Shown: positions 1 through 13,015, counted from the first letter of the stretch. The stretch is 64,000 nucleotides of DNA from an uncultured bacterium (GCA_965372795.1 CBDVDR010000003.1:96001-160000), one strand, 5' to 3'. Notes: a model not told the origin generated them from the sequence alone. A program made the numbers and translations.

Positions 1-1596
1 ACAAGATTCTCAGTGAACGAATCAGATTTTGAACATACTGAATTCAAACATGTTACTCCGACTTATTCATTTTCAGGTGGTGTAATAAACTGGATTGGGA
101 TGCATTCGTTTGGAGCCTACAAAGGAATGGGTGAAGATCCAAATCAAGCGTCGAATGTGATTTCTCCGACTGACTATACTTTTGAATATATTGGCAGTAT
201 GAATCTTGATCCGGTATCAAATGGAACGGATTATATTGATTTTAATACATCAGATCCTGGCTACAATTATACAAAGGTAAAATATACAGATCATATAATT
301 GATCAAACAAATGGATTGAGCTTTGATGACGGTTATATAACTGTTAGAAGCCATTGTACAAACTGCGGTGGTGGTGGTGGTTGTCCAACGCTATATATAT
401 GGGATGGTTTAGGTTATGCTCTTGAGAATCCGATTTTAACCTATTCTCAGTATCAGGTAGATCCTATAGCTCAGGACGATTATTATCAGCTGTCAAATAT
501 TGTTGAAAAAGACGGTTATTATAATATTCAGATTCGTGAGTATCGTGATGAGATAACATTCCTTGATCAAGCTGAGCTAATTGTTGCCAATTATCCCCTT
601 GATTCGGATATTGGAATTAGTACTGAGGGAATGATTTATGCTAAGAAAGAGCCAATTGAACCAATCGCAGCATTTGATGAATGGAATAACGATTTATTGC
701 CGTTAGTTTCAAAAATGGATGGTTCCTTGTTTGAAGCTGATGAACCGGGTTCATTGATTTTGACCTATCCAAATCCAAATTATGGAAAGCAGATGAGTCA
801 AAATAAAGGTTATGCTTTAGGTAATACACCTCCTACACCAAAAGCAAAGAAATTCGTCGATTCAGATTTCAAGATTTATGGAGAAAATGTATATTCCGAA
901 ATAGAGGATATCAACGGTAATTGGCATTATCTTGGCGGTACTGCACCGCGTTCATATGAAACTCAGACAACAAGTTGGCTTGCTGATGCTGATGATTATG
1001 ATCTGGGTGAGACATTCCGGATTAGAATTTCCTGGCAAATTGGTTATAAAGTTGATCAGCAAGCACTTGCGGTTACTGAGCCGGCGAATGTTACCCAACA
1101 TCGCTTGATGCCAATTGAAGCAGATCATACCCGGGTTGGAAAGATTGCAAACAGTTTGAATTCAACCGATGGGGATATTATCACACTTTCACCGGGTGAA
1201 ACCATTGATCTGAAATTTGAAGTTCCGGAAACCTCAAATATTGAAGGTTATGGACAGAAGTTCTTTTTCAAAGCAAATGGTTACTATCGTGCTTTCAAAT
1301 TTGAAGATGGCGTACCGGATAGTTTTGAACTGTTTGATAATTATCCGAACCCATTTAATCCGATAACCAATATAAGATTCTCGGTACCAAAGACAGGCGA
1401 AATATCGCTTGCAGTCTTTAATCTTTTAGGGCAGAAAGTAAAAACTTTGCATGAAGGAGAGATTGATGCCGGTAATCACACTATTCAATGGTCTGGCGAC
1501 AATGATAATAATCAGCAGGTCGCAAGTGGTGTATATTTCTATAAACTAATTACAAAGGATTTTGAGCAGAGTAAGAAGATGGTTCTCTTAAAGTAG
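1..1596 (+). CDS. Secreted protein (5'-partial) with C-terminal FlgD-Ig / T9SS type-A-like sorting domain
   Basis: Frame is open from base 1. C-terminus LFDNYPNPFNPITNIRFSVP...VASGVYFYKL...KKMVLLK is the typical FlgD-Ig/T9SS-A tail. Internal GGGGGCPTLYIWDG motif. Confidence 0.8.
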   Translation, partial: TRFSVNESDFEHTEFKHVTPTYSFSGGVINWIGMHSFGAYKGMGEDPNQASNVISPTDYTFEYIGSMNLDPVSNGTDYIDFNTSDPGYNYTKVKYTDHIIDQTNGLSFDDGYITVRSHCTNCGGGGGCPTLYIWDGLGYALENPILTYSQYQVDPIAQDDYYQLSNIVEKDGYYNIQIREYRDEITFLDQAELIVANYPLDSDIGISTEGMIYAKKEPIEPIAAFDEWNNDLLPLVSKMDGSLFEADEPGSLILTYPNPNYGKQMSQNKGYALGNTPPTPKAKKFVDSDFKIYGENVYSEIEDINGNWHYLGGTAPRSYETQTTSWLADADDYDLGETFRIRISWQIGYKVDQQALAVTEPANVTQHRLMPIEADHTRVGKIANSLNSTDGDIITLSPGETIDLKFEVPETSNIEGYGQKFFFKANGYYRAFKFEDGVPDSFELFDNYPNPFNPITNIRFSVPKTGEISLAVFNLLGQKVKTLHEGEIDAGNHTIQWSGDNDNNQQVASGVYFYKLITKDFEQSKKMVLLK

Positions 1597-1610
1597 GACC
1601 TTTTAATATT

Positions 1611-1642
1611 ACAGTAGTAGGAGTTAATACTCCTGCTACTGT
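1611..1642 (+). terminator. Stem-loop after first gene
   Basis: acagtagtaggagt-taat-actcctgctactgt, 14-bp stem with one G-U pair, weak U tail. Confidence 0.55.
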
Positions 1643-1681
1643 TAAAATTATGAGTAACGATAAAATTTTATTGGGATAGTT

Positions 1682-3334
1682 ATGCAGATAGAAAGATTCA
1701 TCGATAGTAAAAAATTAAAATTAACAGTTTTATTTCTAACTGTATTATTTTTAATGCCGTTAACATTTACAAATGCCGGATCACTTGTGAGTCGTGATGA
1801 TTTTATTGTGTTTGATACTTCACTTAGAGTATCTCTTGAAAATTATACGTGGTTATGTAGTTCCATAGATAGTTCAGGTAATATATATCAGAGCAATGCC
1901 GTTGATGTCGATTCGTCGATATATAGTTATTTTTATGGGCAGTTCAATAATTTTGATTCGTATGGAAACCAATTACAACAGGTTACTAATTATCTTCCTT
2001 ATGATAAGATTGACACCAATTGGTCAGTTCAGGGGCGTTATTTTTGCCATACCAATGATAATTTATTAACATGTTTAATTGGAAAACAAAAACCTAATTT
2101 GGATATTGAATATTCTCAAGCCTTTGTTTATTTGCTCGATAAGAATGGAAATAATTTTATAGAGCCTCAATGTTTGGACTGTGATTTACCTACTTTGGCA
2201 GAAGGTCATTACCATGCAGTTCCTTATGGGGGTATGAATAATAATAATGTCTTTGGAGCAGCCTGGAGATTGTATGTTTATCCTCCGAATTATTATGAAT
2301 CGATAAATGTCCGATTGTACTATCCCGATAGTGACAGTTTATCTCCGATAATTGATCCAAAGCAATTAGTTCAACCTATAATCGGTATCCCTGGGTATGA
2401 AGATGATGATTATATGACTTATCAAAGTCCCGATATGAAAGTAGCCGATGATGGAAGCTTTGCAGTTGCCTGGATGCCGAATCATAACACTCGTGAAAAG
2501 TTTATTTATTATGTTGTTTATAATGCTGACTATACTCAGAAGTCTGAAGTGATGATTGCAAACTGTAAAAGTGGTATACCGTATGAACCTGAGTATTTGC
2601 ATAGAATAAGAATGTGTATGGAAGCTGATGGAGATTTTTATATATCCTGGTTGGCTGAACAGGCTACACCGACAATTTCTAACAGGAGTCATGTATGGAT
2701 GCGCGGTTTCAATAGTGATGGAACTCCAAAATATGATCCGATTAGAGTGAATGATTGTGATTCCTTGTGGTTAACAATGTTTGATGAGATTCAGTCCTAT
2801 ATCGTTTGTGATGATAGTGGTAATGTAGTTGTTTCCTGGGCTGATAGTCGAGATTTCCCTTATGATGAGCATGGCAAACCACGTAATGTTTATATCCAGA
2901 AGATTAATAAAGATGGTGATCTGGTTGGTTTAAACCAGAGGATTAATAATGTTAATGGTTCAGCGATTGGTGGAGATGCTGCAAATTGTGCCATCAATAA
3001 TTCGGGACAAGTTATGATTAGTTGGCGTAATAATGCAGAAGTATTTCCACGATTATGTGGTCAATTGATGCCATTTGATAGTATAGGGAATTTCGTGTCT
3101 GGTGATATAAATTATGATATGACGGCTGGTATTTCAGATATTACAACATTTGTTGATTACCTTTTTCTTGGCAGCAGCATCTCTTTTTGGCCAAGAGGGC
3201 TGGTTGATTTTAACGGTGATGATACTCATGGGAATATTTCCGACTTAACTTATCTGATATCGTATTTTTTTCAGAATGGGTTATCACCTGTGATACCTGA
3301 AACAGGTATTAGAGCAAACCCTGGAAAATTTTAG
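1682..3334 (+). CDS. Secreted protein with C-terminal dockerin type I-like domain
   Basis: Signal peptide ending TNA; duplicated Ca-loop motifs GDINYDMTAGISDITTFVDYLF and DFNGDDTHGNISDLTYLISYFF. Confidence 0.8.
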   Translation: MQIERFIDSKKLKLTVLFLTVLFLMPLTFTNAGSLVSRDDFIVFDTSLRVSLENYTWLCSSIDSSGNIYQSNAVDVDSSIYSYFYGQFNNFDSYGNQLQQVTNYLPYDKIDTNWSVQGRYFCHTNDNLLTCLIGKQKPNLDIEYSQAFVYLLDKNGNNFIEPQCLDCDLPTLAEGHYHAVPYGGMNNNNVFGAAWRLYVYPPNYYESINVRLYYPDSDSLSPIIDPKQLVQPIIGIPGYEDDDYMTYQSPDMKVADDGSFAVAWMPNHNTREKFIYYVVYNADYTQKSEVMIANCKSGIPYEPEYLHRIRMCMEADGDFYISWLAEQATPTISNRSHVWMRGFNSDGTPKYDPIRVNDCDSLWLTMFDEIQSYIVCDDSGNVVVSWADSRDFPYDEHGKPRNVYIQKINKDGDLVGLNQRINNVNGSAIGGDAANCAINNSGQVMISWRNNAEVFPRLCGQLMPFDSIGNFVSGDINYDMTAGISDITTFVDYLFLGSSISFWPRGLVDFNGDDTHGNISDLTYLISYFFQNGLSPVIPETGIRANPGKF

Positions 3335-3716
3335 ACTAATTTTAAGATTGATATAGATCGGCGCTATGTTTTAGTTTATTCGTAATTACAAAAATTCATG
3401 AGATTTATTCCATATTTATAATAAGGTCTGATAAAGTGTACCCTTGTACTGATTTTAATCAATGTTACTAAATTATTGAATCAGCTATCCGGGTTATGAT
3501 AATAGTTGCTATTTATAATATGTTTATTAAGATATCTCTGTGATTATTAAAAAGTATTAAATATTGTATTTATAAATTGAAATAATCCCTTTACAATTCC
3601 TCCCTTTTTTAATTTCTTGGTATGATAAGTATTAAACAATTCTATAAACGCATAATGAACGAATGTGTAAAATATTGGTACTTTACTATTCTTGGAAATA
3701 GATTTAAAGGTGATAA

Positions 3717-6700
3717 TTGAAAGATAACGAGTTAACAAATTACGATCTTCTTGAACTGTTAAATGAAAATGGTAATTTCCAATCCTGGAAAGCAATCAAT
3801 AGAAAGACAAACAGATTATGTTTTCTTAAGTGCTCGTTAAATAATAGCGATCTACAACTTACCAATAAGTTTCTTACTAAATCATATAATCATCAAAAAG
3901 ATATTAGTCATCCACAAATTGTTACGGCTCAATCAAAGAGAATTGAAGAGGGAAGATGCATTGTTGAATATCCTTATCTTGAACCTAATGATTGGATGCA
4001 GCTATCATGTGAAAGATTTAGAAACAATCCCATAAAAGTCCTTACTCAAATTGCATGTATATTAGATTATATTCATTCTTATAATTTGGTTCATTGCGAT
4101 ATTAAGTTTGATAATATTTTTATTAATTCTTCAGATCAAATCAAACTCATTGATCTCGACTTTTTAGTAGCGGCTAATTCAAAACCGCAAGGCTTACTAA
4201 TTGGGACTCCAACCTTTATTCCTCCGGAAATTGAAACCAATGATATAATTCTTACACAATCAGATAATTATTCTCTGGGCAAACAGATTGAAAAGGCTTT
4301 GGATACACCGGCAAGCGATCTTAATATTTCGAAAGAGTTGTTTACTAATATTAAATCATTTTCAGAATGTCTGCTTAATACTGATCCCTGGAACAGATCT
4401 AACAATTTAATTGAAACACTTTATAAATGTAATTTAATAGACAGTAAAACTTATCAGACATTTTTAAGAGATCTACTGATTGATATACTTAATTCTGAAT
4501 TGATTAAAAGCAAATTAACTGATGTTAATGTAACTCCCGAATCAATAATTTCAATCCTCAATAAAAAGAAAATTATTATTCCAACCCCTGAAATTGTTCA
4601 TAATCTAATTGATGCTTATAAACATAATGCCTCTAATACAAAAAATACACTCATATCGTATCTTGAAGAAACAAAAATTATAAAATTAGAATCATACTGG
4701 CATTTACAAAACGATGATAACCAGTTATTTGATTTTCTTATTGAACTTAAAAACCTATCAGGAGGGGAATTAAATAAGGACTCTCTAATCTTAAACTCCC
4801 CTGATTCACTTGAACAAAAAATTGAGCTTATTCAGAATTCTACTTCAGAGGAAGATAAATATTTTAAACTCTTCGCCACTCAACAAATAATTGATAATTA
4901 TTTTAATTTGAATAATTTTGACAATAATATAATAAAAAAATACTTATTGGAATTTACTCAACAGGCGATATCGCTTAATCGGTTAAAATTAGCCTTAGAA
5001 TATTATGAAAAATTGGGTAATATCTGCGAACTATCATTAGATGCTCAAATTGAACGGATTGTCATTTCAATTCTTTTAGGTGAACTGGATAATGCAAAAA
5101 ATATTATCAAAGAGTTGGAAAATAATACAAGCGATCAAATTCGTTTAGATATTTATAAAGCCTGGTTATATGCTATCACCGGCAAAATGTCTGATGCTAT
5201 CGATGTGATTGAGGAAATTTTAAATATACCTAAGAGTGAAATTACACCGAAAAACTACATTAGCTCCAATTATGTTTATGCCATAATTCACTGGATGAAA
5301 GGTGATTATGAAAAGGCTCTGAAATTTTTATTGATCTCCTTTGAAAAATCAAAAAATTCTGAATCCAAATATAACATAGTGTCTATTGCTTCGTCATTAG
5401 CAATCCTTTTTGGGGATATCGGAGATTTTAATGAATCAATTAAATATTGCAAATTAGCAATTAAAGAAGCCATTACACCATTAGACTTAATTCGCGTTCA
5501 ACATATTTATATAACATTAGGATATGCTTATACACGTATTTCAGACTTTTCAAAAGCACAATTTTGGTTAGAAAAATATCATCATTTGCAACTCTATTAT
5601 TTTAGTGGAACCCGTTTAGTCTCATACTCATTAGCGAAAGGGTTTAATTATTCAACACAAAGTAATTTTCTTGAGAGTAAAAACTTACTAATTGAGGCAA
5701 TCAACTTATCAAACCAATTCATGGATTTTAAGAATTACGGAAAGGCGTATTATAATCTTTCTATAAATGAGATGGAGTCTGGTAACTTTTCTAAATGTAA
5801 GTATTATTTGAAAGAAGCAAATACGATATTCACAAAATCAAAAGATGACGCTTCTGTTAAAGAGTTAGAAATTATTTCTGTATTGAATTATTATTTTAAT
5901 AATGAAGGTAATATCAATAATCTACATTCCATAATTGATTCTCTAATTCGATTTAATTGTAACTATGTTTTATGTTTATGCTATTTTCATCAAATCCTAA
6001 ATGATTGTAAAATTGAGGAAATTCAAAAGTCTATAACGAACTTGTTTGAACAAAAAGCATATCTTAAAACTTCGGATGTCCCTTTGTTTAAAGTTTTATA
6101 TGAATTGGGGTACTCCATAAAAGATACTGGGAATCTTGAACAGTTTATTAATGTTTTAAAGAAATGTTATAGAATTCTATCTGCTGCTTCGCAGAAATTT
6201 CTTTCAGCTTTGCTTGCTAAAAAGATTTCAGAACTTTATGAATCATCTAATAAGAATAAACATGCCATTAATTATTTAAATGAAGCGAGGAAAAATTTTG
6301 TTTCATTAAAAAATGAAACTGCACTTCATAAAATTGATGATAAACTTTCTTTGTTAAAGAATTTTAATCAAACTAATAATAATTATTTGGAACATTTATC
6401 AAGTATTTCAAAGATTATAAAAGATATAGAAAATTATAACAGTTCTTTAAGCAAGCTTTTGGAATTTGCTGTTGATCAGACTGGTGCGGAAAGAGGCGTT
6501 CTGTTCAGATGCAATGAAGAAAATAAGCTTCAAATCATCGCATCTGTTAATTGTCACTTTGATAATCTTGAAGATATAAAAGATTTTAGCTTACAGGTTC
6601 CAACAAAAAGTACGGAAGAATTTAAAGCTGTGATTATTGCTAATGCCTTGGATGATAAAAGAACAAAAAAATATGAAAGTATTATTCAAAATAATATCCT

Positions 6701-7832
6701 CTCTATTATTTCAATCCCTATTACTTTTGAAGATAATGTTATAGGAGTTTTGTATCTTGATCATCACACGATCCCCGAATTATTTGATAAGGAAGATATC
6801 TTATTTATTAATTCAATTTCGAATATCATTGCAATAATGTTAAATACAATTATTAAATATAAAACTATCAAAGGACTAAAAGAACAATACCAGCAAATAT
6901 CTGACACATCAATCAACTCGAATTTTATCAGTAGAAATAATGAGATTAAACTTATTCTCGATCGAATACCATCAATTGTTCGTTCAAATAAACCGGTTTT
7001 AATAATTGGTGAGAGTGGGACCGGTAAAGAAATTATCTCTCAATTAATTTATGAGGAAAGTTTAAGAAAAGATAAACCATTTCTAAAAATCAACTGCTCG
7101 GCTATTTCTGCCTCAATGATCGAAAGTGAACTATTTGGTGTTGCTCAAAATGTCGCAACCGGAGTCAAGGAGAGAGAGGGTAAACTATCTGCTGCTGACA
7201 CCGGTACATTACTTTTTGATGAAATTGGGGATATGTCCTTTGATCTGCAATCCAAACTACTTAGAGCAATTGAATATCAGGAGTTTGAAAAAGTCGGCAG
7301 TAACCGAACAATTTATACTGACATACGATTTTTGTATGCGACCAATAAAAATTTGAAAGATTTAATTAGATTAGGCGAATTTCGTGAAGACTTATTTTAC
7401 AGGATTTCTACAATTACGATAAATATTCCTCCGTTACGAGAAAGAAAAGAAGATATTGAGCTTTTAATAAAACATTTTTTATCAAACTCTGAAAATCCAA
7501 AGAAAAATCCTATTATTTTACTTGAGGCATTAAAATGTTTAATAGCCTATGACTGGCCAGGTAATGTTAGAGAATTAAAGGGTGTGATTGATAGTTTATG
7601 TGTGATCTATGCCAGCCTTGAAATTGATAAGAATAAATTGCCCGAACATATTCTAAATTATATTCCTGATAAAAGCTATGAAAATGAAAATGAAATTGAA
7701 TTTGAAAAAGCAAAAATTGAAAACGCTTTTATAAGAAATAATGGCAATCAATTGAAAACCGCTAAAGAACTAGGTATCCCCAATTCGACTTTAAGATATA
7801 AAATTAAAAAATACCATATCAAAATAAAATAA
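3717..7832 (+). CDS. Ser/Thr kinase-like + TPR + GAF + sigma54-interaction AAA+ + Fis-type HTH activator
   Basis: Kinase motifs HCDIKFDN and GTPTFIPPE; long TPR-like helical region; GAF (AERGVLF...IGVLYLD); Walker A GESGTGKE, Walker B LLFDEIG, FREDLFYRI, WPGNVREL; HTH NQLKTAKELGIPNSTLRYKIKKY. Confidence 0.9.
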   Translation: MKDNELTNYDLLELLNENGNFQSWKAINRKTNRLCFLKCSLNNSDLQLTNKFLTKSYNHQKDISHPQIVTAQSKRIEEGRCIVEYPYLEPNDWMQLSCERFRNNPIKVLTQIACILDYIHSYNLVHCDIKFDNIFINSSDQIKLIDLDFLVAANSKPQGLLIGTPTFIPPEIETNDIILTQSDNYSLGKQIEKALDTPASDLNISKELFTNIKSFSECLLNTDPWNRSNNLIETLYKCNLIDSKTYQTFLRDLLIDILNSELIKSKLTDVNVTPESIISILNKKKIIIPTPEIVHNLIDAYKHNASNTKNTLISYLEETKIIKLESYWHLQNDDNQLFDFLIELKNLSGGELNKDSLILNSPDSLEQKIELIQNSTSEEDKYFKLFATQQIIDNYFNLNNFDNNIIKKYLLEFTQQAISLNRLKLALEYYEKLGNICELSLDAQIERIVISILLGELDNAKNIIKELENNTSDQIRLDIYKAWLYAITGKMSDAIDVIEEILNIPKSEITPKNYISSNYVYAIIHWMKGDYEKALKFLLISFEKSKNSESKYNIVSIASSLAILFGDIGDFNESIKYCKLAIKEAITPLDLIRVQHIYITLGYAYTRISDFSKAQFWLEKYHHLQLYYFSGTRLVSYSLAKGFNYSTQSNFLESKNLLIEAINLSNQFMDFKNYGKAYYNLSINEMESGNFSKCKYYLKEANTIFTKSKDDASVKELEIISVLNYYFNNEGNINNLHSIIDSLIRFNCNYVLCLCYFHQILNDCKIEEIQKSITNLFEQKAYLKTSDVPLFKVLYELGYSIKDTGNLEQFINVLKKCYRILSAASQKFLSALLAKKISELYESSNKNKHAINYLNEARKNFVSLKNETALHKIDDKLSLLKNFNQTNNNYLEHLSSISKIIKDIENYNSSLSKLLEFAVDQTGAERGVLFRCNEENKLQIIASVNCHFDNLEDIKDFSLQVPTKSTEEFKAVIIANALDDKRTKKYESIIQNNILSIISIPITFEDNVIGVLYLDHHTIPELFDKEDILFINSISNIIAIMLNTIIKYKTIKGLKEQYQQISDTSINSNFISRNNEIKLILDRIPSIVRSNKPVLIIGESGTGKEIISQLIYEESLRKDKPFLKINCSAISASMIESELFGVAQNVATGVKEREGKLSAADTGTLLFDEIGDMSFDLQSKLLRAIEYQEFEKVGSNRTIYTDIRFLYATNKNLKDLIRLGEFREDLFYRISTITINIPPLRERKEDIELLIKHFLSNSENPKKNPIILLEALKCLIAYDWPGNVRELKGVIDSLCVIYASLEIDKNKLPEHILNYIPDKSYENENEIEFEKAKIENAFIRNNGNQLKTAKELGIPNSTLRYKIKKYHIKIK

Positions 7833-8005
7833 TACTCCTTAATTATTACAATTAACAGAAAATTGACAACTTGTTAGTTTGTCCTATCTCGTTACTATTG
7901 CATGATTTAATAAATAGTTTGCAAATAGTGTTGTCAATAATATACTAAAATCAAATAAATTATTTCGGTCCTAAAATCATAAGTACTTATCAAATATAAT
8001 ATTAG

Positions 8006-8047
8006 CGGCATTGAGATTGCTCTCATTTGCTCGGCATACTCTTTGTA
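8006..8047 (+). promoter_or_regulatory. Two tandem sigma54 (-24/-12) promoter-like motifs
   Basis: cGGCAt-tgaga-TTGCt (8006-8021) and cGGCAt-actct-TTGta (8032-8047) match TGGCAC-N5-TTGCW spacing, directly downstream of a sigma54 activator gene. Confidence 0.7.
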
Positions 8048-8080
8048 ATACTCACTATTAAACAAACATTAGGAGGTATT

Positions 8081-8317
8081 ATGAAATCCAAACAATCACT
8101 TTCAATCATCACTTTAATGACAATTTTCATTCTTGTTATAAGTGCAGTTATTCCTTTTTCTGCCCATGCTGATGGTATGGGGGGAAATCCGCCACCGCCA
8201 AAAGATACATCTGGAATTAATTCTATGACCATTCCTGATTCATCGGGTGAAATAACAAACCCTGACGATGAAAGTTATCTTCTTGATATCATTAATATAT
8301 TACTAATTACATTATAA
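8081..8317 (+). CDS. Small secreted peptide (78 aa, about 48 aa mature)
   Basis: RBS aggagg at 8071, ATG at 8081; Sec signal peptide ending A-H-A; mature part DGMGGNPPPPKD... with hydrophobic C-terminus. Confidence 0.75.
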   Translation: MKSKQSLSIITLMTIFILVISAVIPFSAHADGMGGNPPPPKDTSGINSMTIPDSSGEITNPDDESYLLDIINILLITL

Positions 8318-8325
8318 GGAATTAT

Positions 8326-8928
8326 GTGGGTAATATTTCTAAAATTATCAGACTTCTAAAGTTATTTTACACCCGTAATTTAGTCACAATTGATGAAATA
8401 ATTAATCTATGTGATATTAATAGAAGAACGGCATTTCGTTATCTAAATGAAATGTCTGAAGCAAATATCCCATTATATTATGATAATAATCTAATGGGAT
8501 ATAAAATCAGAGATTTTGGCAGTAAATTTAATACAAACATGTCACTTTCAGAAGTAGCCTTGATTGTATTTTCACTCAAAAATATTTCTTCTGAAATCAA
8601 TCAAAATTATGAAACCGATTTTGAAAAAGCATTAAATGAATTATTAATTACAAATGAGAATGCTGAATTCAATATTGATAAAGTATCAGAGATATATGAA
8701 AATGATAAAATTGATACTGAAGAAACTTCAGTACAATTAACAAATTTCCTGGTAAATCTTGCAATTGACTATAATAGAAGTCTTAAAATATTTATTGGAG
8801 AAGAATTATCGATCAAAATAAAAGAGCCAAGATTAATTTTCGAAAAAGAATGGAATATAACCGAATCTAAAATTGAGAAGCAAAAACTCTTTAAAATTAA
8901 AAATATTCAAAAAATTCAAATAATTTGA
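8326..8928 (+). CDS. Winged-HTH transcriptional regulator with degenerate WYL-like C-terminal domain
   Basis: N-terminal VTIDEIINLCDINRRTAFRYLNEMSEANIPLYYD..GYKI resembles the PafB/PafC/YobV HTH; C-terminal EPRLIFEKEWNI...LFKIKNIQKIQII echoes the WYL pattern. Confidence 0.7.
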   Translation: MGNISKIIRLLKLFYTRNLVTIDEIINLCDINRRTAFRYLNEMSEANIPLYYDNNLMGYKIRDFGSKFNTNMSLSEVALIVFSLKNISSEINQNYETDFEKALNELLITNENAEFNIDKVSEIYENDKIDTEETSVQLTNFLVNLAIDYNRSLKIFIGEELSIKIKEPRLIFEKEWNITESKIEKQKLFKIKNIQKIQII

Positions 8929-9015
8929 TATTTTTTTATATTCTAATAATAGATTACAACAAAATAATTTTTATTGTTCAAACTGACAAAAATGTCACCA
9001 ATGTAATCTAAAATA

Positions 9016-9047
9016 CAAACATTACACTTTAGGTAGTGTAATGTTTG
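9016..9047. terminator. Perfect 13-bp inverted repeat closing the cassette
   Basis: caaacattacact-ttaggt-agtgtaatgtttg. Confidence 0.55.
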
Positions 9048-9135
9048 AGTAATATCACTGTCAAAAGCAGCTCTAAAATAAATATTGGTCAATTTGATTG
9101 TTATTATAGGTTAACGGGAAACGATAAATTCCGGG

Positions 9136-10113
9136 GTGGTAGTGGCAAAATTTTTCAAATATTTTAGTCTATTCGTACTCTTTTTGGGTCTAGCAGTAGT
9201 AGCTCAAGCTGATTTTCATTTGTTTATGCCTGATGGTCAGCCGCAAAATTTCCCTGTTAAAGTTTTTGTAACTTACGATATAACCGATAGTATGAATCCT
9301 AATTTGAGCCTGTTGAATAAAGAGTCTGTTGGAGGTTCATTAACAAAATCAAAATTATACTCGCCCATACATATTATTAGAAATCAAACTTGGCTTGAAG
9401 AAATAGAGGGCACTCAATCTTCCTTCAAGGGTACACTGTTGCTTTTTGATTTAGCTGACAACAAACTTAGATTTTACGAAACACTAAGTCGAGTCGTTCC
9501 GTTATTGATCTGGTATGAAGAAAAAGATGGAGCTTTAGAAGAGAAGAAACTGATTTCATTAAACGAGGTTTATATCGGGAATAGAAATTCCTCAATTTTC
9601 TATACGATTGTACTTTTTCTGCTTCTAAATGGCATCATATTAATTTTATGTAAAAAGGCAAAAAAATCACCTTCAGAATTTTTAAAAGATAATAATAACA
9701 GGTTTTCATTATCCAGAGTTCAGATTGCTGCCTGGACATTTGCCATCGCCTTTATTGTTACAGTTTTTGGGCTTATGAATTTATCGATTGATTCTATTCC
9801 GGAAACATTAATTGTATTGATGGGGCTTTCTTTTGTTACCGGTGGTGTTAGCGCCCATATCTCTGATGATAACGATAAATCGGCAGTCTCTTTAGGACTA
9901 TCAGATATCCTTTGTGTTTATAAAGATGGAGAAAACCGGCTTGATATTCCTCGTGCCCAGATGTTTATCTGGACCGGTGTTGTGCTGGCATTGTTTTTTA
10001 CCAAAAGTCTATATGATGGAATTTTATGGGAAGTTCCATGGCAAATGGTAGCTTTGATGGGAATAAGTCAAGCAGCTTATCTTAATCCAAAATTCAAAGG
10101 GAAAAATAAATAA
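9136..10113 (+). CDS. Membrane protein of unknown function
   Basis: Signal peptide, soluble domain, then TM helices with an internal repeat (SLSRVQIAAWT..LMGLS / DIPRAQMFIWT..LMGIS). Confidence 0.7.
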   Translation: MVVAKFFKYFSLFVLFLGLAVVAQADFHLFMPDGQPQNFPVKVFVTYDITDSMNPNLSLLNKESVGGSLTKSKLYSPIHIIRNQTWLEEIEGTQSSFKGTLLLFDLADNKLRFYETLSRVVPLLIWYEEKDGALEEKKLISLNEVYIGNRNSSIFYTIVLFLLLNGIILILCKKAKKSPSEFLKDNNNRFSLSRVQIAAWTFAIAFIVTVFGLMNLSIDSIPETLIVLMGLSFVTGGVSAHISDDNDKSAVSLGLSDILCVYKDGENRLDIPRAQMFIWTGVVLALFFTKSLYDGILWEVPWQMVALMGISQAAYLNPKFKGKNK

Positions 10114-10579: not shown

Positions 10580-11140
10580 ATGACTTCTTTGTTTGATTTA
10601 TGGATTCCAATAATTGTGTCAAGTGTGTTTGTCTTTGTGGTAAGTTCAATTATTCATATGTTTGTGAATTATCACAAGACAGATTATGGGAAGATTCCCA
10701 AAGAAGATGAAGCAATGAATGCTCTTCGTAATGCAGAAATCCCGCCGGGTGACTATGTTATACCGTTTGCCGGAACGACTAAAGAAATGGGGTCAGAAGA
10801 ATATATTGAAAAATGCAATAAGGGTCCGGTTGTATTTATGACAGTTTTGAAAAACGGTCCGCCATCGATGGGTGGAAGTTTGGTGATGTGGTTTATATCC
10901 TCTGTTATAATCAGTATTTTTGCCGCATATATTGGAAGCAGAGCGCTTGGGGTTAATCCATATTATTTGGATGTCTTTCGTTTTGTTGGATGTTCTGCTT
11001 TTATGGGGTATTCATTAGGACATTTACAGTATTCAATTTGGTATAAAAAATCATGGTGTGCGACAGTTAAAAATATGTTAGATGGCTTAATTTATGCCTT
11101 GGTAACTGCTGGAACATTTGGATGGCTGTGGCCAAAATGA
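10580..11140 (+). CDS. Hypothetical membrane protein (about 4 TM)
   Basis: RBS aggagg; hydrophobic helices; followed by a terminator. Confidence 0.75.
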   Translation: MTSLFDLWIPIIVSSVFVFVVSSIIHMFVNYHKTDYGKIPKEDEAMNALRNAEIPPGDYVIPFAGTTKEMGSEEYIEKCNKGPVVFMTVLKNGPPSMGGSLVMWFISSVIISIFAAYIGSRALGVNPYYLDVFRFVGCSAFMGYSLGHLQYSIWYKKSWCATVKNMLDGLIYALVTAGTFGWLWPK

Positions 11141-11521: not shown

Positions 11522-13015
11522 ATGAAATTTGTAAAATGGTCATTACTGCTAATCTTCGTACTATTGGCAATCACTTGTACCAAACAAGTCGATCAAGCCG
11601 AGTTCACCGTTGATAAATTTAAAGAACAATATAGAGCTATTGAAGATGAAGTTCTTGTAATAAACCTTTGCAAAGATTTCATGGAATACTCTGATGATAT
11701 TGACGCTGTTCGTGAGGCACAAAGTACCTGGCGTGAAATGGATGAAGAAGGTGTTAAGGAATTCACAACAAAACTAAGTGATGCTAATAAGAGCTCAGCT
11801 AAATATTTGTATTTGAAGGGTCGTGTTACCGAATCGCCGGTAGAACAGATCAAAATCGGACGTGAAGTTATAACCCTTGATCCAAATTGGGCGTATGGAT
11901 ACCGACTTACTCTGGCAACTTACAGTCAGAAACTATTTAACGGTGAGAGTGATAATGAGTTCTATAATGAGCTTGAAGGGATGCTTGCTGCTGATGCCGG
12001 TTTATTTACAAAAGTAATCGAAGTAGATTCTACCCAGACATATACTTTTCAATTTTTGGCAGACTACCAAATTTTTACAAAAGATTTTAACGGATTAATT
12101 GAAACTCTCAATAAAGGCAAAGCGCTGGAACAAAGTTGGCCAAGCGGTTTTGATTATGGTATCGCCTATGCTGGCTTGGGTGAATTTGATGGCGCAAAAA
12201 AAGCTGTTGAAGAAGAAGTTGATAAAAAAATCGCTGAAGGGTGGCCAAAAGAAAATCGTGAGGCATATATTGCCCGTTATTATTCGAATGCTTTAAGTAC
12301 TGTTGGAGCATTTGATGAAGCAATTAAATTCAAGAAAAGCAAACAGGGCTATGCTAAAGACATGGGTGCTTTGTATGATCTCGCTTGTACCTACTCATTA
12401 AAGGGCGATGCTGACCAAGCCTTTTCATTTTTGAATAAAGCTGTTAAGAACGGATGGGATCAGGTAAGACATACAAATACGGATACAGATCTTAAATCTC
12501 TTCATGATGACAGTCGCTGGACAGGCTTTGTTTCCAAAGTGGAAGCAAATTGGGATAGTGGCAAAGATAATAGAAAAATTGAAGCTCTTAGTGATAAAGT
12601 ATCTGAAGATGCACCCAAGTGGGCGCTTGAAGATGTTAACGGACAGATTATTAATATTGATGATTTAAAAGGCAATGTCATAGTTTTGGATTTCTGGGCA
12701 ACCTGGTGCGGACCTTGTCGTATGGCAATGCCGGAGATTGATGCTTTTGTTAAAGAAGATGCTAAAGAAAATGTAAAAGTGTTTTCAATCAATGTTTGGG
12801 AAAAGGGAAAATCAAAGCCGGCAAAATTTATGACTGAAAATAATTACAATATGATTTTGTTATATGGCAGTAATGATCTTGCCAAAGAATATGGCATCAG
12901 CGGAATTCCATTTTTATGTGTCATTGATAAAGAAGGTAAGATTAGATACAGACATACCGGTTACAGTGATGGATTACGGGAAAACCTTAACTGGTGGACT
13001 GACGACCTGCTTTAA
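11522..13015 (+). CDS. Lipoprotein, TPR-like repeats + TlpA-family thioredoxin (redoxin) domain
   Basis: Lipobox-like AITC; YDLACTYSL TPR; DFWATWCGPC active site; YGISGIPFL. Confidence 0.85.
   Translation: MKFVKWSLLLIFVLLAITCTKQVDQAEFTVDKFKEQYRAIEDEVLVINLCKDFMEYSDDIDAVREAQSTWREMDEEGVKEFTTKLSDANKSSAKYLYLKGRVTESPVEQIKIGREVITLDPNWAYGYRLTLATYSQKLFNGESDNEFYNELEGMLAADAGLFTKVIEVDSTQTYTFQFLADYQIFTKDFNGLIETLNKGKALEQSWPSGFDYGIAYAGLGEFDGAKKAVEEEVDKKIAEGWPKENREAYIARYYSNALSTVGAFDEAIKFKKSKQGYAKDMGALYDLACTYSLKGDADQAFSFLNKAVKNGWDQVRHTNTDTDLKSLHDDSRWTGFVSKVEANWDSGKDNRKIEALSDKVSEDAPKWALEDVNGQIINIDDLKGNVIVLDFWATWCGPCRMAMPEIDAFVKEDAKENVKVFSINVWEKGKSKPAKFMTENNYNMILLYGSNDLAKEYGISGIPFLCVIDKEGKIRYRHTGYSDGLRENLNWWTDDLL

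Follow-up and report, generated by a model that had tools for sequence, protein, structure and literature searches.

Do the genes at positions 3717-9047 of the DNA presented above form a single regulatory unit and, if they do, which part acts on which? The stretch, hereafter the window, comprises 64,000 nucleotides (nt) from an uncultured bacterium (GCA_965372795.1 CBDVDR010000003.1:96001-160000). The block in question holds a gene for a kinase-TPR-GAF activator of the class that works with sigma-54, then a gap of 490-710 nt across the loci compared here, with an open reading frame (ORF) for a small, apparently exported peptide, and then a gene for a regulator of about 200 amino acids (aa) that joins a winged helix-turn-helix (wHTH) to a WYL-like domain. 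An earlier note on this DNA had proposed that the activator drives the peptide gene and may sense the processed peptide through its TPRs, as an analogue of the RRNPP quorum-sensing systems. Comparison of related genomes indicates that the three genes recur together as a conserved cassette in a subset of the phylum Zixibacteria. The best-supported account of it, towards which we lean, would run from the activator through a private upstream site and a sigma-54-type promoter to the peptide and the WYL factor.

The argument for a unit begins with recurrence. The window belongs to a 3.35-Mb assembly that is 98.65% complete, and the source names of homologous sequences label the group Zixibacteria. 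We searched the 40 nearest genomes with activator residues 1-900 and found full-length homologs at 23 loci in 22 of them; these and the window make up the 24 loci on which the counts below are based. The remaining 18 genomes, including the only other one of the same genus, gave kinase-domain matches only. At 22 of the 23 relatives' loci the activator is followed, 490-710 nt further on and in the same orientation, by an HTH-WYL homolog. At the twenty-third (L045; G014:C1, 5882-6485), only the C-terminal WYL-like half is left of the gene that follows the peptide; this half carries a true W-Y-L signature, and no HTH is encoded in any frame. Between the activator and the HTH gene stands one small ORF of 66-105 aa and the same build in 24/24 loci, separated from the HTH gene by -4 to 73 nt. 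A comparison of an 8-sequence HTH alignment with the species-genome collection added 12 loci, all with the small ORF, for a total of 36/36; upstream of the nine of these that we inspected, a full-size activator ORF was present in eight, and the ninth measured 1264 aa. The downstream recurrence that the earlier note had set as its own check is therefore borne out for the HTH gene (22/23), the peptide (36/36) and the promoter motif described below (23/24).

Nothing else travels with these genes. In an all-versus-all comparison of ORFs from the 24 loci, the only families common to at least three loci were the activator and the HTH protein, and no flanking family emerged, so the flanks differ between loci except among close kin. 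A set of two regulators and a single small exported product, unaccompanied by any further conserved gene, looks like a signalling module. One genome (G027) carries two cassettes, 31 kb apart, which are old duplicates (TPR identity 43%). An HTH-family profile matched 235 of 285 Zixibacteria genomes at E <= 1e-8, a figure that includes ordinary 320-aa HTH-WYL paralogs; the best match reached E <= 1e-40 in about 77 genomes by hand count. Outside the phylum, a pattern scan returned partial HTH matches only. The block is also more AT-rich than its surroundings, as had been noticed before, with a GC content of 0.23-0.34 across 3501-9000 against 0.30-0.40 in the flanks. An Rfam scan of 3500-9400 gave a single match at chance level.

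The non-coding DNA between activator and peptide is conserved as well. The sigma-54 consensus is TGGCAC-N5-TTGC. We scanned a 61-position window lying 35-95 nt upstream of each peptide ATG and took the background from elsewhere in the same loci on both strands. The strict pattern GGCAY-N5-TTG was found in 14/24 loci (0.0021 expected per scanned window) and a relaxed pattern, GGY-NN-N5-TYG (GG[CT]NN-N5-T[TC]G), in 23/24 (0.09 expected); the single locus outside the relaxed pattern reads TGGAAT-N5-TTGAC, and the GG with sigma-54 spacing is kept in all 24. The earlier note described two correctly spaced -24/-12 motifs in the window. Both sites are there with GG-N10-G spacing and within the relatives' range of distances to the peptide ATG, but the second lacks the C of the -12 element. 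The gene for sigma-54, rpoN, whose presence had been a point to check, was found in the genome (G000:C13). In our judgement, the peptide promoter is likely to be sigma-54 dependent. A GGAGG-like site precedes the peptide ATG in most relatives.

A second non-coding element lies just past the activator stop codon, where 11/24 loci carry a tandem T[GA]CC[AG] pair, mostly TTGCCR with an 8-nt period. In 10 of these 11 the pair stands at -235 to -265 from the ATG (-177 in the other), about 180 nt upstream of the promoter motif; 500 shuffles gave a mean of 0.58 loci and a maximum of 4, and the reverse strand gave 3/24. By their relative place and period, the three direct repeats of the window may be the AT-rich counterpart of these TTGCCR tandems. 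A search for TTGCCRNNTTGCCR throughout five genomes yielded 5-7 matches each, compared with 2-5 for the reversed control, and no regulon emerged; since the exact tandem is not enriched genome-wide, a private site for the activator is the better reading, compared with an operator shared by a regulon. A k-mer enrichment over the gaps gave nothing above shuffles except fragments of the promoter and repeat motifs. We also observed a perfect 9-bp inverted repeat, ATTGACAAC / GTTGTCAAT, at 7862-7870 and 7930-7938, with 59 bp between the arms, downstream of the activator stop and upstream of the promoter motifs. The left arm shares bases with the first of the direct repeats, and the element could be a second operator or a chance occurrence in AT-rich DNA.

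The 1371-aa TPR activator, the 78-aa ORF with its strong ribosome-binding site and signal-peptide-like start, and the next gene 8 nt further on all lie where the earlier note had placed them (Table 1). In the activator's kinase domain the Hanks-type catalytic set is complete (lysine, HxD...N loop, metal-binding aspartate and APE-type motif), and K38, H126, D128, N133, D146, P170 and E171 are invariant in 20/20 aligned homologs; given this invariance, the domain looks active. Leucine, not glycine, follows DF, and the glycine loop reads as seemingly degenerate. The sensor region was modelled with a pLDDT (predicted local distance difference test) of 88.3 and a pTM (predicted TM-score) of 0.87, and Pfam TPR matches fall within residues 520-820. 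In this model, a helix-helix-strand-strand-helix element at residues ~291-347 (4587-4757) precedes the TPRs and may be a winged-helix remnant. Further on, Walker A (GESGTGKE), a Walker B-type DE and residues of the arginine-finger region are invariant in the aligned homologs. NCBIfam gave only matches below cut-off (NifA, PrdR, AtoC, NorR, LuxO and others), and a word-based homolog search with the first 900 residues returned only 4 matches.

Table 1. Features of the cassette, in window coordinates, with the basis of each assignment.
Feature	Position	Strand	Basis or remark
Activator gene, 1371 aa	3717..7832	+	ORF; Pfam, NCBIfam; full-length homologs of 1365-1445 aa, 27-34% identity
Protein kinase domain, residues 24-254	3786..4478	+	Pkinase E 9.6e-19
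Sensor region, residues 262-900	4500..6416	+	AlphaFold2 model: winged-helix-like element, then ~26 TPR-type helices
GAF domain, residues 911-1042	6447..6842	+	GAF_2 E 1.5e-8; GAF E 1.1e-6
Sigma-54 interaction AAA+ domain and lid, residues 1071-1318	6927..7670	+	Sigma54_activat (PF00158; 1071-1235) E 2.3e-53; AAA_lid_14 E 1.2e-19
L1 loop NVATGV	7149..7166	+	Replaces GAFTGA of other enhancer-binding proteins
Fis-type HTH (HTH_8), residues 1328-1366	7698..7814	+	HTH_8 E 4e-10
Three direct repeats with 8-nt period (TTGACA, TTGTTA, TTGTCC)	7863..7884	+	Candidate upstream activator site, by position and period only
Sigma-54-type motif 1, GG-N10-GC	8007..8020	+	Sequence; closer textbook match
Sigma-54-type motif 2, GGCAT-N5-TTGT (GG-N10-GT)	8033..8046	+	Form commonest in relatives; without -12 C
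Shine-Dalgarno AGGAGG	8071..8076	+	4 nt before ATG
Peptide precursor, 78 aa from ATG	8081..8317	+	Signal-peptide-like N-terminus ending AHA|DG; counterpart in 36/36 loci
Short wHTH-linker-WYL-like regulator, 200 aa, without WCX	8326..8928	+	GTG start 8 nt after peptide stop
Hairpin after operon	9016..9047	+	13-bp stem, 6-nt loop; z = -4.86 for 8925-9075

The last gene of the cassette had been called WYL-like, and this holds by fold and by profile, though not by the Pfam WYL model, which 0/23 family members reach; HTH_11 is matched in 23/23 and HTH_PafC in 12/23. The regulator model (pLDDT 86.2) begins with a winged HTH, continues with four helices and ends in a domain of five strands. In Foldseek it matched DriD, CapW, PafBC and BrxR best, over ~215 columns at a probability of 1.00 with TM-scores of ~0.27, which are low because the domains are posed differently. 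When the family profile was aligned by hhalign with a 312-aa paralog from the same genome (HTH_11, WYL at 137-204 and WCX at 231-304 by Pfam), the probability was 99.2% over paralog residues 1-206. The cassette protein stops at residue 200, right past the WYL-like strands, and its W-Y-L signature is reduced to W-x-L; the fold matches and the profile alignment with a true WYL paralog thus point to a WYL-type regulator that ends before the WCX domain. Against solved structures, the HTH-family profile found nothing below E 0.04. The hairpin that was said to close the block has its stem in place; it lacks a U/T-tract on the + strand and so is not a textbook terminator for that strand. Two loci in same-genus genomes (L039 in G036 and L041 in G033) carry an extra 451-aa ORF resembling a sigma-54 activator directly after the HTH-WYL gene. 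The genome of the window also has a second regulator cluster (L049, G000:C22:40000-46000, at 990-5840) with a 312-aa HTH-WYL-WCX protein, a 724-aa GAF-PAS-LuxR protein, a DUF3592 protein and, as the nearest paralog of the cassette regulator, a short HTH protein of 220 aa.

For the peptide we compiled statistics over 33 precursors, one of which starts at a badly chosen codon. Their mean length is 82 aa, with about two K/R among the first 10 residues, an N-terminal hydrophobic run of 13-25 residues (~16-25 in most; 7 in the badly started precursor) and a small-x-small (AxA-type) cleavage site predicted at about residue 33. From these precursor features we infer export and cleavage. In the window the mature part would comprise 49 aa (residues 30-78), with a DG start, a proline-rich stretch, an acidic disordered linker and a hydrophobic C-terminal tail of 12 aa. 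This plan is general: the mature part mostly starts with DG, P-x0-1-P occurs in its first 12 residues in 30/33, D, E, S, T, P, G, N and Q account for 76% of the linker, and the net charge runs from -1 to -11 (mean -7). The last 12 residues have a mean Kyte-Doolittle hydropathy of +1.87 (minimum 1.28), and an acidic residue falls within the last 16 in 31/33. ADG and the prolines are the only alignment columns conserved in at least 70% of the sequences. Ratios of nonsynonymous to synonymous substitution rates of 0.37 and 0.28 in two close pairs show that the peptide ORF is genuinely coding and moderately constrained. It matched no family in Pfam, NCBIfam or PADLOC and has no paralog in the genome; its 11 relatives in the databases are all hypothetical proteins, of which just two are named, both of them labelled Zixibacteria. 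A PEP-CTERM-type sorting signal (compare PMC1569441) was considered for the tail and rejected, given K/R in the last 12 residues in only 8/33 and the lack of paralogs.

How might these parts be connected? In the account that we favour, the cytoplasmic activator would integrate signals through its kinase, TPR and GAF modules and bind near the tandem repeats just past its own stop codon, from where its AAA+ ring would open the sigma-54-type promoter ~180 nt further downstream. That promoter would transcribe a two-gene operon for the strongly acidic, Sec-exported peptide with its hydrophobic tail and for the short wHTH-WYL factor, which would pass the decision to genes elsewhere or feed back on the cassette. 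The account draws on strict adjacency across deep divergence, with activators at 27-34% identity, and on conserved non-coding motifs at fixed positions. That this particular activator drives the peptide promoter appears fairly probable.

What the peptide does is a separate matter. That it serves as a cue of any kind acting outside the cytoplasm is possible, with the balance somewhat against it. It might instead be simply an output, a small acidic envelope or secreted protein whose tail sits on the membrane or on a partner, with the WYL factor as the real downstream regulator and no feedback at all. The conserved N-terminal motif of the mature part and the constraint over its whole length are consistent with such a role. 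So is the long signal region (mean 33 residues), which could pass for a membrane anchor as readily as for a cleaved signal, and so is the activator, for which the domain content predicts no extracytoplasmic part. The available text of PMC3162934 ties sigma-54 regulons to the cell exterior. Two regulators for one 49-aa product would nevertheless be a heavy investment for a mere effector, the peptide has no paralog elsewhere in the genome, and no family match suggests a structural role. We regard this reading as tentative and, on the whole, rather unlikely.

The loop proposed in the earlier note goes further. The exported peptide would be cut to a C-terminal hydrophobic piece, re-imported and bound in the TPR groove, where it would induce more peptide and WYL factor. 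The layout does resemble receptor-propeptide pairs, which the accessible part of PMC10075063 defines as two adjacent genes, and the precursor has a basic N-terminus, a long hydrophobic stretch, an AxA-type site, a hydrophobic tail and an acidic residue near its end. The peptide is also among the fastest-evolving parts of the cassette (79% identity in the closest non-identical pair, against 86-98% elsewhere), the distribution is patchy (22/40 relatives, not found in the one same-genus sister genome, two cassettes in one genome), and the genome encodes two OPT-family oligopeptide transporters. It has, however, neither an SBP_bac_5 (Opp/Dpp-type) binding protein nor a PTR2 transporter, as far as its 98.65% completeness allows. 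Where a cell has two membranes, a Sec signal takes the peptide no further than the periplasm. The mature part is conserved at both ends and the whole ORF is under purifying selection, which fits a product of ~49 aa better than a released oligopeptide. Foldseek placed generic TPR superhelices (Ctr9, IFT-A, APC/C, OGT, LGN) at the top of its list for the sensor model, and phage Rap only at rank 24.

Co-variation of peptide and TPRs, which the earlier note had suggested as a check, did not single out the TPRs either. Partial Mantel tests compared peptide with domain distances over 28 cassettes, with AAA+ distance as the control. In these tests, distances of the peptide tail tracked the TPRs (partial r 0.16) no better than the kinase (0.235) or WYL domain (0.25), and the mature N-terminus gave 0.286 for the TPRs and 0.278 for WYL. 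We read these correlations as fast-evolving parts that track each other among close kin, not as the mark of a specific partner. Per-domain identities in close and paralogous pairs gave no sign of accelerated divergence of TPRs or peptide. A complex prediction of sensor residues 262-1050 with mature peptide residues 30-78, both supplied as alignments, scored 0.30 against a mark of 0.32 with no controls folded, and so speaks neither for nor against binding. Direct re-sensing of the peptide by the TPRs, and with it the RRNPP-like loop, appears unlikely. The same low probability attaches to a sigma-54-wired autoinduction circuit, in which an exported peptide or fragment would report cell density or envelope state to an activator that opens its promoter without the GAFTGA phenylalanine.

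Set beside the RRNPP systems themselves (Rap-Phr, PlcR-PapR, NprR-NprX, AimR-AimP), the cassette shares a cytoplasmic TPR regulator next to the gene for an exported precursor with a distinctive C-terminus, a patchy occurrence and a fast-evolving peptide. Receptors of the RRNPP class have a few hundred residues, with the TPRs at the C-terminus and an HTH or a phosphatase as output, and their peptides enter the cell through an oligopeptide permease (Opp). The cassette differs in a receptor 3-5 times larger, in the central place of its TPRs, in an AAA+ output that would act on sigma-54 and in a host outside the Firmicutes. It differs further in the missing Opp-type binding protein and in a mature peptide that seems conserved over its whole length. 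On the sizes and hosts of RRNPP systems see also PMC10075063, whose authors discard other receptor architectures.

The favoured wiring is itself weakened by two variant elements, the L1 loop of the activator and the -12 element of the promoter, and further points tell against it. The earlier note had overlooked that the L1 loop reads NVATGV (xVATGV in the family) in place of GAFTGA, with alanine at the position of the phenylalanine; the 8 other motif-confirmed bacterial enhancer-binding protein (bEBP) paralogs in the genome have GAFTGA, GAYTGA, GSFTGA or GAFTDA. According to the portions available of PMC7175178 and PMC3162934, GAFTGA is essential for contact with sigma-54. The former describes the L1 loop as touching sigma-54 region I and the -12/-11 DNA and reports that most GAFTGA mutants fail to activate. 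The latter treats GAFTGA as the test of a true sigma-54 activator, with the GAFTGA-defective TyrR, DhaR and HupR being sigma-70 dependent, and its Additional file 3 lists defective variants among which a VATG-type loop might be found. In the promoter, the base after TTG is mostly T or A, with TTGT, TTGA or TTGG instead of TTGC in most loci, and the -12 C occurs only in the first site of the window and in one relative, while a second relative has TCGC. The genome has more than 12 other sigma-54 AAA+ matches, 8 of them motif-confirmed, any of which could in principle serve the promoter. Finally, the window repeats at 7863-7884 do not fit the T[GA]CC[AG] tandem pattern of the relatives.

On these grounds the activator might in practice not be a sigma-54 activator, working instead with sigma-70 like TyrR, DhaR and HupR, or solely as a repressor or kinase, with the motif served by another activator or representing some other binding site. 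The variant loop is itself conserved, however. Its central three positions, in the 15 family members with the loop recovered, are ATG in 13, VTG in one and ASG in one; A1147, T1148 and V1150 are near-invariant among the aligned homologs, so that the threonine is retained, and in our reading the loop keeps its length save for a one-residue shortening further on. The invariant Walker and arginine-finger-region residues likewise speak against this reading, and the motif keeps its GG and sigma-54 spacing, stands at a fixed distance from the peptide gene and is always found beside this activator. Nor is the altered -12 base confined to the cassette. Among 17 intergenic GGCAY-N5-TTGN sites in this genome (with an ORF of at least 120 aa within 15-140 nt), C stands at -12 in 8, T in 4, A in 3 and G in 2; the counts over all 236 sites in the genome are 48 for C, 40 for T, 89 for A and 59 for G. 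TTGT sites stand beside three other activator genes (G000:C2:275979(-), C11:98966(+) and C7:49726(-)), and are thus not peculiar to the cassette; the C2 and C7 activators have GAFTGA-type loops (GAYTGA, GAFTDA), and several of these TTGT promoters have an ATAT box in common, placed a few bases downstream. We therefore consider an activator that works without sigma-54 decidedly unlikely.

An anti-phage defence or abortive-infection module, suggested by the occurrence of WYL regulators and Ser/Thr kinases in defence islands, by PADLOC matches to the kinase (PD-T4-6), RtcR-type AAA+ and WYL models and by CapW and BrxR among the nearest structures of the WYL protein, is very improbable and was rejected, as the PADLOC matches cover generic domains only, no effector gene is present and the flanking genes share no relationship from one locus to the next and do not form defence islands.

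With the sigma-54 wiring retained as the favoured account, the activator is closest in plan to GAF-containing bEBPs such as NifA, NorR and FhlA, with which it shares the order of GAF, sigma-54 AAA+ and Fis-type HTH domains and a nearby target promoter of -24/-12 spacing; NifA is its best NCBIfam match (303.5 bits against a cut-off of 528.85). Unlike them, it has ~900 extra N-terminal residues (kinase, winged-helix-like element and TPR superhelix), the NVATGV loop and, as its presumed target, a peptide and a WYL regulator. LuxO of Vibrio quorum sensing is likewise a sigma-54 enhancer-binding protein in cell-cell signalling, and its model was matched at E 3e-66, below cut-off. As a response regulator, it receives its input from membrane kinases responsive to small molecules, and it drives small RNAs; the cassette activator, in contrast, has no receiver domain. 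In the second regulator, wHTH, helical linker and WYL-like beta domain follow one another as they do in DriD, PafBC, CapW and BrxR; it departs from them in lacking WCX, in not reaching the Pfam WYL model and in its W-x-L signature. Known ligands of those four factors include single-stranded DNA. Both kinds of regulator in the cassette are known, the WYL type as well as the enhancer-binding protein that has a private promoter. The trio itself is undescribed in the literature that we found, in agreement with the earlier note, which knew of no system with this layout: our searches turned up no description of kinase-TPR-GAF sigma-54 activators, of Zixibacteria with sigma-54, or of WYL, sigma-54 and signal peptide together.

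Other genes in the window stand apart from the cassette. Upstream, ORFs 13-1596 and 1682-3334 both end in type IX secretion C-terminal sorting domains; Por_Secre_tail (Pfam) matches the former, and the tail of the latter has dozens of tblastn matches genome-wide. Downstream, the ORFs at 9136-10113 (325 aa) and 10580-11140 (186 aa) matched nothing in Pfam, NCBIfam or PADLOC and are without counterpart in the relatives' cassette loci, and 11522-13015 encodes a 497-aa protein in which a TPR stretch is joined to a C-terminal redoxin/thioredoxin domain.

Of the firm findings at this locus, the most surprising is that a family without one defining bEBP feature always adjoins a sigma-54-type promoter. 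If the wiring is true, nature would hold an entire family of enhancer-binding proteins that work with xVATGV for GAFTGA, at promoters that mostly lack the -12 C, and this would bear directly on how L1 engages sigma-54 and the -12 fork. In genomic terms, a regulator-peptide-regulator cassette without conserved neighbours bears the signature of a signalling module. With this wiring, it would be a candidate case of communication by peptides beyond the Firmicutes, and this in a phylum that only metagenomes have revealed. Should the peptide prove to be no more than an output, the cassette would still provide a defined sensor, promoter and target for an unstudied family of one-component sensors.

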